In this document: in pieces, positions 6,681 to 14,370 of the stretch | Layout of the letters: the number at the start of each line of letters is the position of its first letter | Numbering within the stretch: position 1 is the first letter of the stretch | DNA from: Escherichia coli | GTDB taxonomy: Bacteria; Pseudomonadota; Gammaproteobacteria; Enterobacterales; Enterobacteriaceae | Length of the DNA: 64,000 nt | Assembly (NCBI RefSeq): GCF_050920415.1 | Contig: NZ_CP169309.1 | Reading direction: 5' to 3' (one strand) | The notes under the pieces: model-generated | Database searches by the model: none | Told to the model about the DNA's origin: nothing | Seen by the model: only the letters and a program-made list of their open reading frames with translations | Program-made: the position numbers and the translations under genes

Positions 6681-6748
6681 ACCCGCATTGCGTGCATTTG
6701 CCGGGCGCAGCACAAACGCCTGCCCCGGCCAACCATACCGGAACTGCT

Positions 6749-8827
6749 ATGTCACAGACACTTGCACTCCATCCCGTGAAAAAGCGGGATGCGATTTTCC
6801 TTTGGGTTTTGCTGGGCTGGCTGGCATTTATCCTGTTGCCGAGCTGGAGTCTCGATTATGGTCTGCTGGAGTCCACGAGTGATGAGATCCTCGAGGCGTA
6901 CAGCTGGTCGCATTTTAATATCAGCTGGCTGTGGTATTTACTCCCGAGTTTGCTGCTGGTTCGCCCGTTTAATGAGGCCAAACGCGAGCAGCGTAGCCGT
7001 CATTATTTTGATGCCGGCTGGGCATTGCTTTGTTTAGCGTTTATGGTCATCAGTGCCACCATCGTTGGCCGCGGTCTAGGCTACGCCGCCATCGTGCTGT
7101 TTATCGAATTAAGCGCGATAATGACGCTGGCCTTAACCCGCCTCGAATGGCTGGGTGGCGACCGCTTTGTGATCGGCTCGCTGATTGCGATTGTGGCGCT
7201 GATTGGCATTTTTATCGTCTGGCCGAGCATCGCCATTTTTATCCCGATGTTCACCAACGACGCGGGAGGGTTCGCCCCACTGGCGTTTATGAATGTGCTC
7301 TCGCAGGCACATATTGTTCAGGTGATCGTCAACTCCATCGTCTTATCGATAGCGGTGGGTATTGGCTGTACTTTCTTCGGTCTGGTGCTGGCGATATATA
7401 CCACGCGCATCGCCAAACGCAGCGCCGTAATCGGCCGCATCTTTTCCATTCTGCCAATTGTCACGCCACCGTTTGTGGTCGGCTTAGGCGTTACGCTCAT
7501 GATGGGGCGCTCCGGCTACATAACGGAATTTATGGTGGAGTGGTTTGGGCTGACCAACACCAACTGGCTGTATGGTTTTACCGGGATCTGGCTGGCACAG
7601 GTCCTGGCATTCACGCCAATGGCTTTTATGATCCTTGATGGGGCCATTAAAACCATTCATCCCTCGCTGGAAGAGGCCTCCTACACCCTGCGTGCCAGCC
7701 GCTGGCAAACCTTTAACGGCGTGTTTGTGCCGTTGCTAAAGCCCGCGCTCGCCAATGCCTTTTTAATCGTCGTGGTACAGTCACTGGCTGATTTCAGTAA
7801 CCCGCTGGTGCTTGGCGGCAACTTCGACGTACTGGCGACGCAAATTTACTTCTACATTACCGGCTCGCAGCTGGATTATCAGGCCGCCAGCACCCTTGGC
7901 GCTTTCCTGCTGCTGTTCTCGCTACTGGTGTTCTGCGTCCAGTATATGTGGATTGGTAAACGCTCTTACGTCACGGTTTCCGGAAAGTCCTACCGCGGCG
8001 ATGTCCAGCCACTACCGGTCACCCTGGTGTGGAGCGTGGTCGCCATACTTGCGATATGGATTGTCTTTAACGCCCTGCTCTATGGCAGCATTTTCTACGG
8101 CAGCTTCACCGTGAACTGGGGCGTAGACTACACCCTAACGCTGGATAACTTTATCAAGTTATTTGGTCAGGGGATGAGCGACGGCGCGTGGCCTTCACTG
8201 TTAGATACCTTGCTCTACGCCGGGATTGCCGCACCCATTACCGCTATCTTTGGCCTGCTCATCGCCTGGGTGGTGGTGCGCCAACAATTCAAAGGCAAAA
8301 AGACCATCGAGTTCACCACCATGTTGTGCTTTGCCGTACCGGGTACGGTGGCGGGCGTCTCGTATATTCTCGCCTTTAACAGCGCTCCGGTTTATCTCAC
8401 CGGAACGGCGGCAATTGTGATTATCTCGATGGTGATGCGTAACGTTCCGGTGGGTATTCGCGCCGGGATTGCGGGTCTGGGGCAGATCGACAAATCGCTG
8501 GATGAAGCCTCACTTAGCCTGCGTGCGGGTTCCCTGCGAACCATTACGCACATTTTACTGCCGTTGTTACGCCCAGCTATTCTCTCGGCCCTGATTTACA
8601 GCTTTGTGCGGGCTATCACGACGGTCAGCGCCATCGTCTTTCTCGTCACGCCGGACACACGCGTGGCAACCGCCTACATCCTTAACCGCGTAGAAGACGG
8701 CGAATATGGCGTAGCCATCGCCTACGGTTCGATTCTGATCGTGGTGATGCTGGCGATTATTTTCCTCTTTGACTGGCTGATCGGTGAAGCACGTATTTCC
8801 CGTTCTAAAGCCAAAAACCAGGCGTAA
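6749..8827 (+). CDS. afuB: Fused two-domain ABC permease, FbpB/AfuB family
   Basis: About 690 aa polytopic membrane protein with duplicated permease halves typical of FbpB; start at ATG 6749 is tentative (track ORF begins at GTG 6692). Confidence 0.8.
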
Positions 8828-8838
8828 TGGAGCGCACT

Positions 8839-9885
8839 ATGAGTCAGAAAAATTTTGTGGAACTGCGCAACGTCACTAAACGATTCGGCAGTAATACGGT
8901 TATCGACAATATCAATCTCACCATCCCACAAGGGCAAATGGTGACGCTGCTCGGTCCTTCCGGATGCGGCAAAACCACCATTCTGCGTCTGGTTGCCGGG
9001 CTGGAAAAACCGAGCGAAGGGCAAATTTTTATAGATGGCGAAGATGTCACGCATCGTTCCATTCAGCAACGCGATATCTGCATGGTGTTTCAGTCATACG
9101 CTCTGTTCCCACATATGTCGCTGGGCGAAAACGTTGGCTATGGGCTGAAAATGCTTGGCGTGTCGCGTAGTGAAGTGAAGCAGCGGGTGAAAGATGCGCT
9201 AGCAATGGTGGATCTGGAAGGATTCGAAGACCGCTATGTCGACCAGATTTCCGGTGGTCAGCAACAGCGTGTGGCTCTGGCCCGTGCGTTGATCCTTAAG
9301 CCTAAAGTGCTGCTGTTTGATGAGCCGTTAAGTAACCTCGATGCCAACCTGCGTCGCAGCATGCGCGATAAAATCCGCGAGCTGCAAAAGCAATTTAACA
9401 TCACTTCGCTCTATGTGACTCACGATCAAAGTGAAGCTTTCGCGGTGTCCGACACCGTGTTGGTGATGAATAAAGGTCACATCATGCAGATTGGTTCACC
9501 GCAGGATCTCTATCGTCAGCCCGCCTCCCGCTTTATGGCAAGTTTTATGGGCGACGCCAACCTGTTCCCGGCGAACTTTAGCGAAGAGTATGTCGATATC
9601 TACGGTTATCGCCTGCCGCGCGCGGCGCATTTCCCGGCGCAAGGTAGCGGCACCGTCGGCGTTCGCCCGGAAGCCATCACCTTAAGCAATCACGGCGAAG
9701 AGAGTCAGCGTTGTGTTATTCGCCATGTCGCCTACATGGGGCCGCAGTACGAAGTGACCGTAGAATGGCATGGTCAGGAGATTTTATTGCAAGTCAACGC
9801 CACCCGTTTACAGCCCGATATTGGTGAGCACTATTACCTCGAAATCCATCCTTACGGGATGTTTGTTTTAGCGGATGCGGCATAA
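8839..9885 (+). CDS. afuC: ABC transporter ATP-binding protein, FbpC/AfuC family with C-terminal TOBE-like domain
   Basis: Walker [10 protein letters not shown], signature [15 protein letters not shown], Walker B LLFDEP; start ATG 8839 with GGAG 6 nt upstream; alternative ATG 8827 overlaps the afuB stop. Confidence 0.8.
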
Positions 9886-9897
9886 AAATAGCAGATA

Positions 9898-9927
9898 AAC
9901 GGTCCCAACCTGTCTTGAGGGACCGTT
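9898..9927 (+). terminator. Hairpin downstream of afuC (possible intrinsic terminator, weak U-tract)
   Basis: Inverted repeat AACGGTCCC / GGGACCGTT with 12-nt loop, 13 nt after the afuC stop; followed by CACCTGTTT. Confidence 0.35.
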
Positions 9928-9967
9928 CACCTGTTTAAACGTCGGACAACAATTATTCTCCGGCGTT

Positions 9968-10020
9968 ATATACTATAGGGGGGTATGCATTGACATATAG
10001 CATACCCCCCTATAGTATAT
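9968..10020. promoter_or_regulatory. frmR operator/promoter: perfect 21-bp inverted repeat with G6/C6 tracts flanking a TTGACA -35
   Basis: ATATACTATAGGGGGGTATGC (9968-9988) and its exact reverse complement (10000-10020); spacer contains TTGACA (9990-9995); TAGTAT -10 candidate at 10013-10018; 25 bp upstream of frmR. Confidence 0.8.
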
Positions 10021-10044
10021 TGCGTGCAGATGATGAGGTGCGAA

Positions 10045-10320
10045 ATGCCCAGTACTCCGGAAGAGAAGAAAAAGGTCCTTACTCGAGTTCGTCGTATTCG
10101 GGGGCAAATTGATGCTCTGGAACGGTCGCTGGAGGGTGATGCCGAATGCCGTGCCATACTCCAACAGATCGCTGCCGTTCGGGGCGCGGCTAACGGGCTG
10201 ATGGCAGAAGTGCTTGAAAGCCATATCCGGGAAACGTTTGACCGAAATGACTGCTACAGCCGCGAAGTCAGCCAATCCGTTGACGACACTATTGAACTGG
10301 TTCGTGCCTATCTTAAATAG
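10045..10320 (+). CDS. frmR: Formaldehyde-responsive transcriptional repressor (CsoR/RcnR family)
   Basis: 91 aa; [30 protein letters not shown]... matches FrmR; track ORF starts at an upstream GTG (10024). Confidence 0.95.
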
Positions 10321-10324
10321 CTGA

Positions 10325-11464
<1,140 letters not shown>

Positions 11465-11556
11465 TTTCCCGCTGATTTCGCCCCGTCCAGTTCAGACGGG
11501 GTTCTCAATACCGTCCCCGGGCAGCCGTCCGGGGATTAACCGTGAGATAATGACTG

Positions 11557-12390
11557 ATGGAACTCATTGAAAAACATGCCAGCTTTGGCGGCTGGCAAAA
11601 TGTGTATCGGCATTATTCCCAATCACTGAAATGTGAAATGAATGTCGGCGTCTATCTCCCACCAAAAGCCGGGAATGAAAAATTGCCGGTACTGTACTGG
11701 CTTTCGGGCCTGACCTGTAACGAGCAGAATTTCATTACTAAATCGGGGATGCAACGTTACGCGGCTGAGCACAACATTATTGTTGTTGCGCCAGACACCA
11801 GTCCGCGAGGCAGTCATGTCGCAGATGCCGACCGTTACGATCTCGGACAAGGTGCCGGGTTTTACCTGAACGCAACGCAAGCGCCGTGGAATGAACATTA
11901 CAAAATGTATGATTATATCCACAACGAGCTGCCGGATTTAGTGATGCAACATTTTCCGGCAACGGAAAGAAAGTCAATCGCGGGTCATTCAATGGGCGGG
12001 CTGGGCGCGCTGGTGCTGGCGTTACGTAACCCAGATGAATATGTCAGCGTCTCGGCGTTTTCGCCCATTGTCTCCCCATCGCAAGTACCGTGGGGACAGC
12101 AAGCCTTTACCGCATATCTTGGTGAAAATAAAGATGCCTGGTTGGATTACGATCCGGTGAGTCTTATTTCACAAGGTCAACGCGTTGCGGAAATCATGGT
12201 TGATCAGGGGTTGAGTGATGATTTTTACGCAGAACAGCTGCGGACTCCAAATCTTGAAAAGATCTGCCAGGAGATGAATATCAAAACGTTAATCCGTTAT
12301 CACGAGGGTTATGATCACAGCTATTATTTTGTCTCCAGTTTTATTGGCGAGCATATTGCCTACCACGCCAATAAACTGAATATGCGTTGA
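11557..12390 (+). CDS. frmB: S-formylglutathione hydrolase (esterase D family)
   Basis: 277 aa; GHSMGG serine hydrolase motif; matches FrmB; operon position after frmA. Confidence 0.95.
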   Translation: MELIEKHASFGGWQNVYRHYSQSLKCEMNVGVYLPPKAGNEKLPVLYWLSGLTCNEQNFITKSGMQRYAAEHNIIVVAPDTSPRGSHVADADRYDLGQGAGFYLNATQAPWNEHYKMYDYIHNELPDLVMQHFPATERKSIAGHSMGGLGALVLALRNPDEYVSVSAFSPIVSPSQVPWGQQAFTAYLGENKDAWLDYDPVSLISQGQRVAEIMVDQGLSDDFYAEQLRTPNLEKICQEMNIKTLIRYHEGYDHSYYFVSSFIGEHIAYHANKLNMR

Positions 12391-12505
12391 GCATCCGCGC
12401 ACGCCAGCCGGATGCGGCGTGAACGCCTTATCCGGCCTACATTTCGCCCATGAGCCGTAGGCATGATAAGACGCGCAAAGCATCGCATCAGGCATCTGTG
12501 CACGG
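12391..12505. repeat. REP/BIME palindromic elements downstream of frmB
   Basis: GCCGGATGCGGCGTGAACGCCTTATCCGGCCTAC and GTAGGCATGATAAGACGCG...GCATCAGGCATC motifs typical of enterobacterial REP units. Confidence 0.75.
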
Positions 12506-12516
12506 CTTATCGATGA

Positions 12517-13056
12517 TTACCACATCAAATCATCAGGCACTTTAAAGTCGGCATACGGATCGTCTTCATCCTGCTCTTCGGCGCTGAGCGCGCTGTGCAA
12601 CACAATACTGCTGGCGTCACGCTGAGCAATTTTATCGGCAACGCTGGCGGGAATAATGGCGTATTCACCTTCGCTATTGTTATCGACCAACAAGCGGGCA
12701 ATCGCCAGACGACCATTAATCAACTGCGTTTGTGTGAGCTTATCGACAAAAATCTTCTTAATCAGATTGCTATCGGTAAAGTTAAAACCGATATCGCCAT
12801 TGGCAATGGTGATCCGGTTCATTTCAATAAGCTGCTTCACCTGAGCTTTATATTCTTTCGCCAGTGCCGCTTGTTTTTGCTGCTCGCTAAGCTGTTTATC
12901 ACGCTCAAGCTGTGCCTTTTTATTTTCTTCTACCGCCGCCCGAGCCTCACGCGCCTGAACGCGCGATTTTTTCGCCGTTCTCTCGACCTTCGCCGCTTTT
13001 TTGCTGGTGACTAATCCTGCTTTGAGCAACTGCTCTTGTAAGGTAAGTTTTGCCAT
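12517..13056 (-). CDS. yaiL: DUF2058-family protein YaiL
   Basis: 179 aa from internal ATG (MAKLTLQEQLLKAGL...); lysine/glutamate-rich; matches YaiL; track ORF has a 24-codon upstream extension. Confidence 0.85.
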   Translation of the reverse strand: MAKLTLQEQLLKAGLVTSKKAAKVERTAKKSRVQAREARAAVEENKKAQLERDKQLSEQQKQAALAKEYKAQVKQLIEMNRITIANGDIGFNFTDSNLIKKIFVDKLTQTQLINGRLAIARLLVDNNSEGEYAIIPASVADKIAQRDASSIVLHSALSAEEQDEDDPYADFKVPDDLMW

Positions 13057-13158
13057 CTTTGTTTCCAAACCCGCTGAATAATTTTTAGCGAGTATACCTG
13101 TAAACGCCGTGGGTGTATTGGGGGGCAAGTCCCTTTCGCCCCGGCTTAATAAGGCGCG

Positions 13159-14370
13159 TCAGGCATCAGCGCACGGCTGCATTCGTGATTTTCGACTCAT
13201 CAAAATAAACACCGCTAATCCAGCAACAAGAATACCCGGCGCAGATGCGGCCATTACGCCAACCGTGCCAGTGCCTAATGCCAGCATTTTCCCTGCCAGC
13301 AACGGGCCGCTCATGGCACCCAGACGCCCAATCGCCACGGCGGTTCCCACGCCGGTTGCGCGGATCTGCGAACTGTAAAACAACGGAGCCAATGCATACA
13401 AAACGCTTTGCCCACCTGTTGCAAACAACCCTGCGACGAATCCCGCCAGCAACATACCGTTAAATGATGACACCGTTCCCAGCGCTAACAGCGAAGCTAA
13501 CATACCGCTATAAATCAGTAGCGACATGGTCATTGGACGCAGTTTATCCATCAGTGCGCCCAATATTAACGTCCCGCTTGCCGCCCCCATTTGTAGTGCA
13601 AACATCACCCCTGCCGCCTGCGATGGCTGGAATCCTTGTTCCACTAAAAGCAGCGGTAGCCAGTTGATCAACATGTAGACCACCAGCAAAGTGAAGAAAT
13701 AACACAACCACAGCAGCAGCGTTGCGGTTGCCGTGTCGGGCGCAAATAACGCACGCAGCGGCGGCGCGGCCTGTTTTTCGCCAGCGAACACCGCCGACTC
13801 CGGCAGCCAGCGCATTAACAGTGGCACCAGAATCAACGGCACCACACCACCTACCCAAAACACCGTTTGCCAGGCTAAGTTTGCCCCGGCAAAACCCAGT
13901 GTCGCCGCCAGCGCCGCGCCAATGGGAACCCCGCAATACATCAGGCTCACCGCCGTTCCACGAAAACGTGGCCCCGCCGCTTCAGACGTCAGGGCGATAA
14001 GATTCGGCAACGCCGCCCCCAGCCCGACACCGGTCATTAGCCGCGCAAAGACCAGTGAGGGGAAATCCCAGGCAATAGCCGTTGCCAGCGAGAACAAACC
14101 AAACAGCGCAACTGAACCAATCAAAATGCGTTTACGACCATAACGGTCCGCCAGCATTCCGCCAACCAGCGCGCCGGGTAGCAAACCGAGTATTCCGGCA
14201 CTGAATATCCAGCCCATTTGCATTTTATCGAGTGCAAAAGCCTGGGCGATGCCACCCGCCGCAATGCCAGCCGCCTGAAGATCCAGTCCTTCCATCAGAG
14301 CGACTAAAAAACAAAGCCCGATGGTCAGCATCAGGCGGGATGAAGATGATGAAGGGGTACGAGTCGACAT
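13159..14370 (-). CDS. mhpT: 3-(3-hydroxyphenyl)propionate MFS transporter
   Basis: 403 aa from ATG 14370 (MSTRTPSSSSS...); 12-TM MFS; matches MhpT; downstream of mhpE. Confidence 0.9.
   Translation of the reverse strand: MSTRTPSSSSSRLMLTIGLCFLVALMEGLDLQAAGIAAGGIAQAFALDKMQMGWIFSAGILGLLPGALVGGMLADRYGRKRILIGSVALFGLFSLATAIAWDFPSLVFARLMTGVGLGAALPNLIALTSEAAGPRFRGTAVSLMYCGVPIGAALAATLGFAGANLAWQTVFWVGGVVPLILVPLLMRWLPESAVFAGEKQAAPPLRALFAPDTATATLLLWLCYFFTLLVVYMLINWLPLLLVEQGFQPSQAAGVMFALQMGAASGTLILGALMDKLRPMTMSLLIYSGMLASLLALGTVSSFNGMLLAGFVAGLFATGGQSVLYALAPLFYSSQIRATGVGTAVAIGRLGAMSGPLLAGKMLALGTGTVGVMAASAPGILVAGLAVFILMSRKSRMQPCADA

Follow-up and report, generated by a model that had tools for sequence, protein, structure and literature searches.

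The spacer between frmA and frmB of Escherichia coli harbors two stable stem-loops, hairpin 1 and hairpin 2, which are specific to the sense strand and under selection. Judging from sequence comparisons, the two differ in history: hairpin 2 appears to be an old element of the frmB leader, and hairpin 1 an addition specific to Escherichia. We estimate at roughly one half the probability that both act as stem-loops of the frmRAB mRNA in intercistronic stability, processing or insulation, and neither as efficient terminators nor as DNA sites.

The frmRAB locus

E. coli detoxifies formaldehyde mainly through the frmRAB operon, whose promoter is in wide use as a formaldehyde biosensor. In the window, that is, the whole 64-kb stretch of DNA analyzed here, the three genes lie on the same strand (Table 1). 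The ATG of frmR at 10045 gives a 276-nt gene, the same as in K-12 and in the plasmid copies discussed below. The stop codon of frmA is TGA (11462-11464), and between the end of frmA at 11464 and the start of frmB at 11557 there are 92 nt, the length already given by the sequence-only reading that drew attention to this gap. The three genes have been reported as one FrmR-repressed operon (PMC5146963). At Pfrm, the FrmR operator is a perfect 21-nt inverted repeat (ATATACTATAGGGGGGTATGC / GCATACCCCCCTATAGTATAT, 9968-10020) with a G6/C6 tract between TATA/TAT repeats; it brackets the promoter, TTGACA-17-TAGTAT, and is the tandem FrmR operator of the published work (PMC5146963). The same repeat yields a spurious sub-threshold Rfam match, to "tsr25," at 9892-10020. 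A sequence scan of the frmA-frmB gap finds no promoter-like site. In K-12, SELEX with the RpoD holoenzyme gives an "internal promoter" peak in the frmR-frmA spacer (about 10321-10354 of the window), and no such peak is listed for the frmA-frmB gap (Shimada et al., 2014, PMC3946193).

Directly 3′ of frmB lies a pair of REP elements, the first of which is canonical (GCCGGATGCGGCGTGAACGCCTTATCCGGCCTAC); Rfam naRNA4 (REP) matches occur below threshold at 12397-12531. In K-12, a Term-seq 3′ end maps to 377325(-), just beyond the REPs homologous to this pair (Adams et al., 2021, PMC7815308). These REPs are probably the stabilized 3′ end of the operon transcript.

At the frmA-frmB junction, the window matches strain MFDS1022581 with 100% identity, and for most of 5,416 complete E. 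coli genomes the value is 95-97%. As only 6 of 5,426 complete genomes reach 99% or more, the lineage of the window is an uncommon one. To the left of frmR (6692-9885), the window is also unlike K-12: ABC-transporter genes stand where K-12 has yaiO, and 8827-9885 encodes a ferric ABC ATP-binding protein equivalog.

Table 1. Features of the frmRAB locus in the window, with coordinates counted from its first nucleotide.
Feature	Position	Strand	Sequence or product	Basis or remark
frmR	10045..10320	+	Repressor, 91 aa	First gene of the operon; NCBIfam equivalog NF008464
frmA	10355..11464	+	S-(hydroxymethyl)glutathione dehydrogenase	TIGR02818 equivalog, 743 bits; ORF listing
frmA-frmB intercistronic spacer	11465..11556	+	92 nt	Sequence and ORF listing
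Hairpin 1	11480..11502	+	GCCCCGUC / CAGUUCA loop / GACGGGGU	RNA folding
Linker between the hairpins	11503..11512	+	10 nt; UUCUCAAUAC in the window, UUCUUAAUAC in most E. coli	
Hairpin 2	11513..11536	+	GUCCCCGGGC / AGCC loop / GUCCGGGGAU	RNA folding
frmB leader and ribosome-binding region	11537..11556	+	UAACCGUGAGAUAAUGACUG	Nearly invariant in Escherichia; conserved in the plasmid-borne cassette
Predicted outer helix, 3′ side	11543..11547	+	UGAGA, 5 bp with UCUCA (11503-11507)	Window MFE structure
frmB (fghA)	11557..12390	+	S-formylglutathione hydrolase	TIGR02821 equivalog, 398 bits
Two REP elements, BIME-like pair	12397..12500	+		Directly 3′ of frmB; sequence and sub-threshold Rfam naRNA4

Structure of the two hairpins

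Rereading of the sequence recovers both inverted repeats where they had first been placed: CCCCGTC (11481-11487), 7 bases and GACGGGG (11495-11501) for the first, and CCCCGG (11515-11520), 8 bases and CCGGGG (11529-11534) for the second. Folded as RNA, hairpin 1 begins 16 nt past the frmA stop and consists of 8 bp (11480-11487 with 11495-11502) closing a 7-nt loop (-13.9 kcal/mol, z = -4.9). Hairpin 2 pairs 11513-11522 with 11527-11536 (-18.8 kcal/mol, z = -3.9); this stem of 10 bp includes G·U pairs, and in most E. coli it has 9 bp. In the minimum free energy (MFE) structure, the linker is the only extended AU-rich stretch outside both hairpin stems. Its first five bases (11503-11507) form the 5′ side of an outer helix in the window MFE structure, and the linker is entirely unpaired when the common E. 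coli alleles are folded. From this predicted structure, the AU-rich linker is a candidate endonuclease site.

The fold of the gap is unusually stable on one strand. The sense-strand MFE is -39.3 kcal/mol, compared with -26.7 ± 3.1 kcal/mol for 200 dinucleotide shuffles, none of which is as stable (z = -4.0), while the antisense strand of the gap gives z = -1.2. Equally stable folds occur in 0.9% of 15,978 sliding 92-nt windows taken from both strands of the 64 kb.

Variation within Escherichia

Both hairpins are kept in 5416 of the 5426 E. coli genomes carrying the locus. The alleles compared, 29 in all, were taken from complete genomes, from 82 metagenome contigs and from three further Escherichia lineages; look-ups of FrmA homologues, aimed at more diverged spacers in the genus, returned only common E. 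coli alleles. Over 21 distinct Escherichia sequences, standard pairs occupy 98% of 458 stem cells, and 11 of the 22 stem pairs vary on one side only and are still paired. For hairpin 1 alone, pair counts over the Escherichia alleles give 97%. The stems of the same 21 sequences contain no double compensatory changes. A column-shuffle control of the Escherichia alignment gives 98.0% pairing both as observed and when shuffled; divergence within Escherichia is low, so this control cannot separate structure from chance.

The direction of substitution does distinguish the stems from their surroundings. Among transitions at Watson-Crick pairs of the stems, 8 leave a G·U pair on the sense strand (from C to U opposite G, or from A to G opposite U) and 2 break the pair. 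Both pair-breaking transitions are in E. albertii, which leaves 6 to 0 for E. coli alone. The flanking coding DNA of these loci (900 nt) shows 30 transitions of the pair-keeping kind and 38 of the other, and the bias in the stems is therefore not mutational; binomial estimates are about 0.02 over all alleles and about 0.007 when E. coli is taken by itself. Polymorphism over the whole spacer is close to that of synonymous sites (about 20/92 sites, by our own count, vs. 73/300 third positions).

Hairpin 1 folds in all Escherichia alleles, at -10 to -13.9 kcal/mol, or to -19.6 kcal/mol if an extra copy in E. albertii is included. In that species (L014 1307-1500; L095) the frmA-frmB gap measures 194 nt and contains, in order, an extra stem-loop resembling hairpin 1, a REP-like element (GCCTGATGTGCTACACCTGTCAGGCCTAC), hairpin 1 and hairpin 2, the latter in a weakened form that has a 2x2 internal loop. 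The extra copy has diverged (ACCCCGCCC...GGGCGGGG, -19.6 kcal/mol), and a U-A pair of the E. coli stem is C-G in it, with a U·G intermediate in K-12. Because hairpin 1 lacks double changes and the shuffle control is uninformative, its support comes down to the direction of the transitions, the diverged E. albertii duplicate and its stability.

In E. coli Br_167_kylling (L011, NZ_CP182378.1), an IS421 insertion stands in place of frmA and of hairpin 1 as far as ...GGGTTCTTAAT, with hairpin 2 and frmB intact. This natural deletion variant offers a way to study hairpin 2 by itself.

Hairpin 2 in a plasmid-borne operon

Outside Escherichia, the nearest relatives of FrmB (80% identity) are encoded by a mobile operon, frmR-frmA-VOC-fghA. 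In this cassette, a gene for a 132-aa protein of the VOC family (glyoxalase fold) lies between frmA and frmB. The cassette occurs on plasmids Rts1 (L174 680-3437) and pAsaXII (L175 330-3093) and in loci L015-L021. It is widespread on Klebsiella, Enterobacter, Yersinia ruckeri, Aeromonas, and Proteus plasmids and is also present in genomes of Aeromonas, Morganella, Edwardsiella, Serratia, and Providencia. Hairpin 1 is absent from the cassette and is found in Escherichia only. Directly upstream of frmB, the cassette has UUCCCCUGAC-loop-GUCAGGGGAA followed by AUAACCAUGAGA...CUG-AUG, and by sequence, the homology of this stem-loop and leader to hairpin 2 and the leader of E. coli is clear. In some cassette copies there is an in-frame upstream ATG (ATGAGACAGAGGCTGATG) ahead of the annotated frmB start.

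A covariance model built from Escherichia sequences only was run against 378 kb of frmA-frmB loci from other genera. It matches all nine cassette copies (Enterobacter, Aeromonas, Morganella, Edwardsiella, Serratia, Providencia, and plasmids Rts1 and pAsaXII), at E = 5e-6 to 3e-10, and every match ends at the ATG of frmB; nothing else in the 378 kb is a convincing match to hairpin 2. The resulting alignment of 18 distinct sequences was fitted to the structure of the model and leans toward that structure; in it, 98.1% of cells are paired, compared with 92.8 ± 1.4% in shuffles (0/500). The covariation score is 0.311 against 0.215 in shuffles (0/500). Two of the 9 pairs carry double-sided changes, one from G-C to U-A and the other among A-U, G·U and G-C, and sliding the partner by one column lowers pairing to 68-69%. 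RNAalifold independently predicts the same helix. A hand alignment yields the same pair table and adds a change from U-A to C-G at the stem base in Edwardsiella; hand and covariance-model alignments were used in place of MAFFT alignments of the E. coli and cassette sequences, which misplace the loop indel.

The alignment of hairpin 2 contains 22 sense-strand G·U cells vs. 1 A·C cell, an asymmetry that favors sense-strand RNA over duplex DNA. Hairpin 2 and the leader are 66-75% identical between E. coli and the cassette, and the synonymous third positions of frmB, frmA, and frmR 49-68%; being more conserved than synonymous positions, hairpin 2 and the leader are under purifying selection. A recombination breakpoint in the spacer was considered, as FrmA is 94% and FrmB 80% identical to the cassette proteins, and was rejected: synonymous identity is alike (0.52-0.68) across frmR, frmA, and frmB.

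Stable hairpins that are not homologous to those of E. coli occur at the frmA/adhC-frmB/fghA junction in Proteus, Photorhabdus, Stenotrophomonas, Mangrovibacter (L054-L062), and Providencia, as well as in Vitreoscilla and Lysobacter relatives, and 16 of 67 junctions have a gap of <30 nt and no hairpin. As unrelated hairpins recur and these 16 junctions do without, a stem-loop at this position is recurrent, not obligatory. The gap between adhC/frmA and fghA/frmB is just 1-25 nt in some other lineages. In Photorhabdus (L036-L066, GUUAAAAACCG...CGGUUUUUAAC), the junction hairpin has a clear U tract, and Proteus (L034-L078) also has U-tract hairpins here; the Stenotrophomonas hairpin (L052-L088) lies directly before the fghA Shine-Dalgarno sequence.

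Possible termination at the junction

Of the rival explanations, a leaky terminator ranks highest, followed by a translational insulator and then, equal to one another, by DNA palindromes and functionless remnants. In the first, which we regard as unlikely, hairpin 1 is a leaky intrinsic terminator that sets the ratio of FrmA to FrmB at the level of transcription, and hairpin 2 takes no part or serves as a back-up. Both hairpins have the GC-rich stem-loop of an intrinsic terminator, and the 8-bp stem of hairpin 1, so close behind the frmA stop, is followed by UUCUUAAU in most E. coli. The tail reads GUUCUUAAUA in K-12, and the K-12 allele is called terminator-like, although it only just passes a permissive terminator scan; the U-tract hairpins of Photorhabdus and Proteus at the same junction point in the same direction. 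However, the tail of hairpin 1 is poor in U and is not conserved. It is GUCUUAAU in L013 and L108, AUUCUUAAU in E. albertii, and UUCUCAAU in the window, with 4 U in 8, where the permissive scan calls neither hairpin 1 nor hairpin 2 terminator-like. Hairpin 2 is followed in the window by AUUAACCG, its tail AUUAACC being without a U tract. Furthermore, a 7-nt loop is long compared with typical E. coli terminators, and the homologous plasmid operon does without any hairpin 1.

Term-seq in K-12, under conditions in which the operon was uninduced, places no curated 3′ ends in the K-12 gap, 378369-378461(-) (Adams et al., 2021, PMC7815308). As frmRAB is repressed in the absence of formaldehyde, this speaks only weakly against either a strong terminator or a protected 3′ end of high abundance; a protected frmRA 3′ end, if strong, might have appeared despite the uninduced state. 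The SMRT-Cappable-seq tables do not mention the frm genes. A literature search found no paper on the frmA-frmB junction, and no Northern, half-life, 5′/3′-end or FrmA:FrmB ratio data.

The frmB leader and possible translational insulation

Alternatively, the hairpins may be translational insulators only: by sequestering GC-rich sequence of the spacer, hairpin 2 would keep the weak ribosome-binding site of frmB accessible in any upstream context, and neither stability nor termination would be affected. This is a less likely reading than leaky termination. It draws on the nearly constant spacing between the 3′ edge of hairpin 2 and the frmB AUG, which is 20-22 nt in E. coli and in the plasmid operon (20 nt in the window), whether the stem-loop follows hairpin 1 and frmA or a VOC gene. 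At this distance, the 3′ edge of hairpin 2 would lie approximately at the 5′ edge of the initiating ribosome's footprint. The leader is nearly invariant and its Shine-Dalgarno-like sequence, GAGA (11544-11547), is weak: the best duplex with the anti-Shine-Dalgarno sequence has -2.8 kcal/mol for frmB, vs. -6.2 for frmA and -6.9 for frmR. However, the frmB start region, with a predicted accessibility of 0.43, is no more open than those of frmA (0.43) and frmR (0.48), and insulation leaves hairpin 1 unexplained.

The outer helix predicted in the window MFE structure would cover the Shine-Dalgarno-like bases of frmB, a suggestion that we put forward tentatively. The helix is kept in Escherichia, where it is almost invariant, and its conservation is for that reason uninformative; no UCUCA complement occurs upstream of hairpin 2 in the plasmid cassette. 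A mini-helix in the leader that would mask the start codon, proposed by RNAalifold, was rejected: it is without covariation and is broken in K-12, L013, and L018. A 6-codon out-of-frame mini-ORF (ATG ACT GAT GGA ACT CAT TGA) overlaps the frmB start at 11550-11570 of the window.

Possible DNA sites and repeat remnants

That the hairpins are palindromes acting at the DNA level, as a site for FrmR or another regulator or as a recombination site, is very improbable: both are near-perfect inverted repeats, and hairpin 2 is palindromic in the cassette too, but the FrmR operator at Pfrm resembles neither, the arms co-vary rather than stay conserved, the excess of G·U over A·C cells is that expected of RNA, and the antisense fold is unremarkable. 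A second FrmR operator in the gap was rejected, as a repeat search found no match there to the Pfrm inverted repeat.

We give just as little weight to the view that the hairpins are functionless remnants of a mobile palindromic repeat (REP/BIME or MITE) or of a deleted VOC gene; genuine REPs do lie 840 nt away after frmB, the E. albertii gap has its REP-like insertion, and the related plasmid operon has a VOC gene in place of hairpin 1, but the gap contains no Rfam or REP match, and hairpin 2 co-varies and is more conserved than neutral sites. A cmscan of 9500-13500 against Rfam at E <= 10 returns nothing in 11465-11556. The spacer and each hairpin occur once per E. coli genome, each hairpin being single-copy in about 5400 genomes even at E <= 10, and the hairpins are therefore not of the REP/BIME type; a dispersed repeat of any such kind was rejected, with no REP/naRNA4 match in the gap. 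Nor is hairpin 1 significantly similar to the VOC gene at its 3′ end: one alignment with the Aeromonas cassette looked suggestive, but 14 of 15 comparisons lie inside the range of shuffles, and this origin of hairpin 1 is not supported.

A proposed role in mRNA stability and processing

The hairpins are stable sense-strand stem-loops between cistrons of one transcription unit, as the strand asymmetry and the lack of a promoter in the gap indicate. The sequence-only reading had proposed a partial terminator or an RNA-processing or stability element. Strand asymmetry, retained pairing and the compensatory changes of hairpin 2 support an RNA element of the sense strand that could decouple frmA from frmB; the terminator half of that proposal is weakened by the poor U tract.

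If the hairpins act in mRNA stability and processing, hairpin 1, with hairpin 2 behind it, would block 3′-to-5′ exonucleases and so protect the frmR-frmA segment. An endonucleolytic cut in the AU-rich linker would give rise to an frmB mRNA starting at hairpin 2, and hairpin 2 may in addition keep GC-rich sequence off the weak frmB ribosome-binding site. Together with the weak Shine-Dalgarno sequence, the hairpins would then yield less FrmB than FrmA from the single FrmR-controlled promoter. We thus infer from the sequence that they probably tune FrmA relative to FrmB. A role in stability and processing would be compatible with slight termination at hairpin 1 where its tail is UUCUUAAU.

It is improbable, at the level of a speculation, that hairpin 2 and the leader form an undescribed, selectively maintained cis-regulatory RNA motif of frmB/fghA that goes beyond passive stabilization, either by binding a protein or an sRNA or by switching FrmB translation independently of FrmR. 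Such a motif would add a second, post-transcriptional layer of control to formaldehyde detoxification.

Comparison with known systems

Intercistronic stem-loops that stabilize mRNA are known from the REP hairpins of E. coli malE-malF and the hairpins of the puf operon of Rhodobacter capsulatus. Like these, the frm hairpins are GC-rich, form on the sense strand and lie between cistrons, following the cistron expected to be more expressed, with no promoter in the gap. In contrast to malE-malF and puf, they are not REP sequences, are single-copy, and comprise two adjacent elements of different ages. With leaky intra-operon terminators, hairpin 1 shares a GC-rich stem and a U-containing tail, and its K-12 allele passes the permissive scan. 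It differs from them in its variable tail with few U, and in that the window allele does not pass the scan; hairpin 2 is without a U tract, and there is no Term-seq end.

Stabilizing hairpins at the 5′ terminus are known from ompA-type leaders, and papB-papA is a known processed intercistronic junction. The frm arrangement resembles both, with a hairpin, an AU-rich single strand and a second hairpin directly upstream of the ribosome-binding site. This predicted layout is the one expected if an endonuclease cut made a hairpin-capped downstream mRNA. Unlike in ompA-type leaders, hairpin 2 is internal to the primary transcript, and protection of a 5′ end by hairpin 2 therefore requires a prior processing step. 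As with REP/BIME elements, the frm hairpins are short GC-rich extragenic palindromes, and true REPs lie in the flank of the same operon (12397-12500). In contrast to REP/BIME elements, they are without similarity to the REP consensus or Rfam naRNA4, and their copies are not dispersed.

Implications for formaldehyde detoxification

The frmA-frmB hairpins are an example of a familiar operon design and not a new principle. What the comparison adds is the conservation and covariation of hairpin 2, an element common to the E. coli chromosome and to a plasmid-borne formaldehyde-resistance operon. The conservation of hairpin 2 and the independent hairpins at the same junction suggest that the uncoupling of FrmA and FrmB is under selection. 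Deregulated or plasmid-borne frmRAB confers resistance to formaldehyde (methenamine) in clinical isolates (PMC13029678). Should the hairpins determine the ratio of FrmA to FrmB, or how long the message lasts, they would be relevant both to the engineering of synthetic methylotrophy and to levels of resistance.
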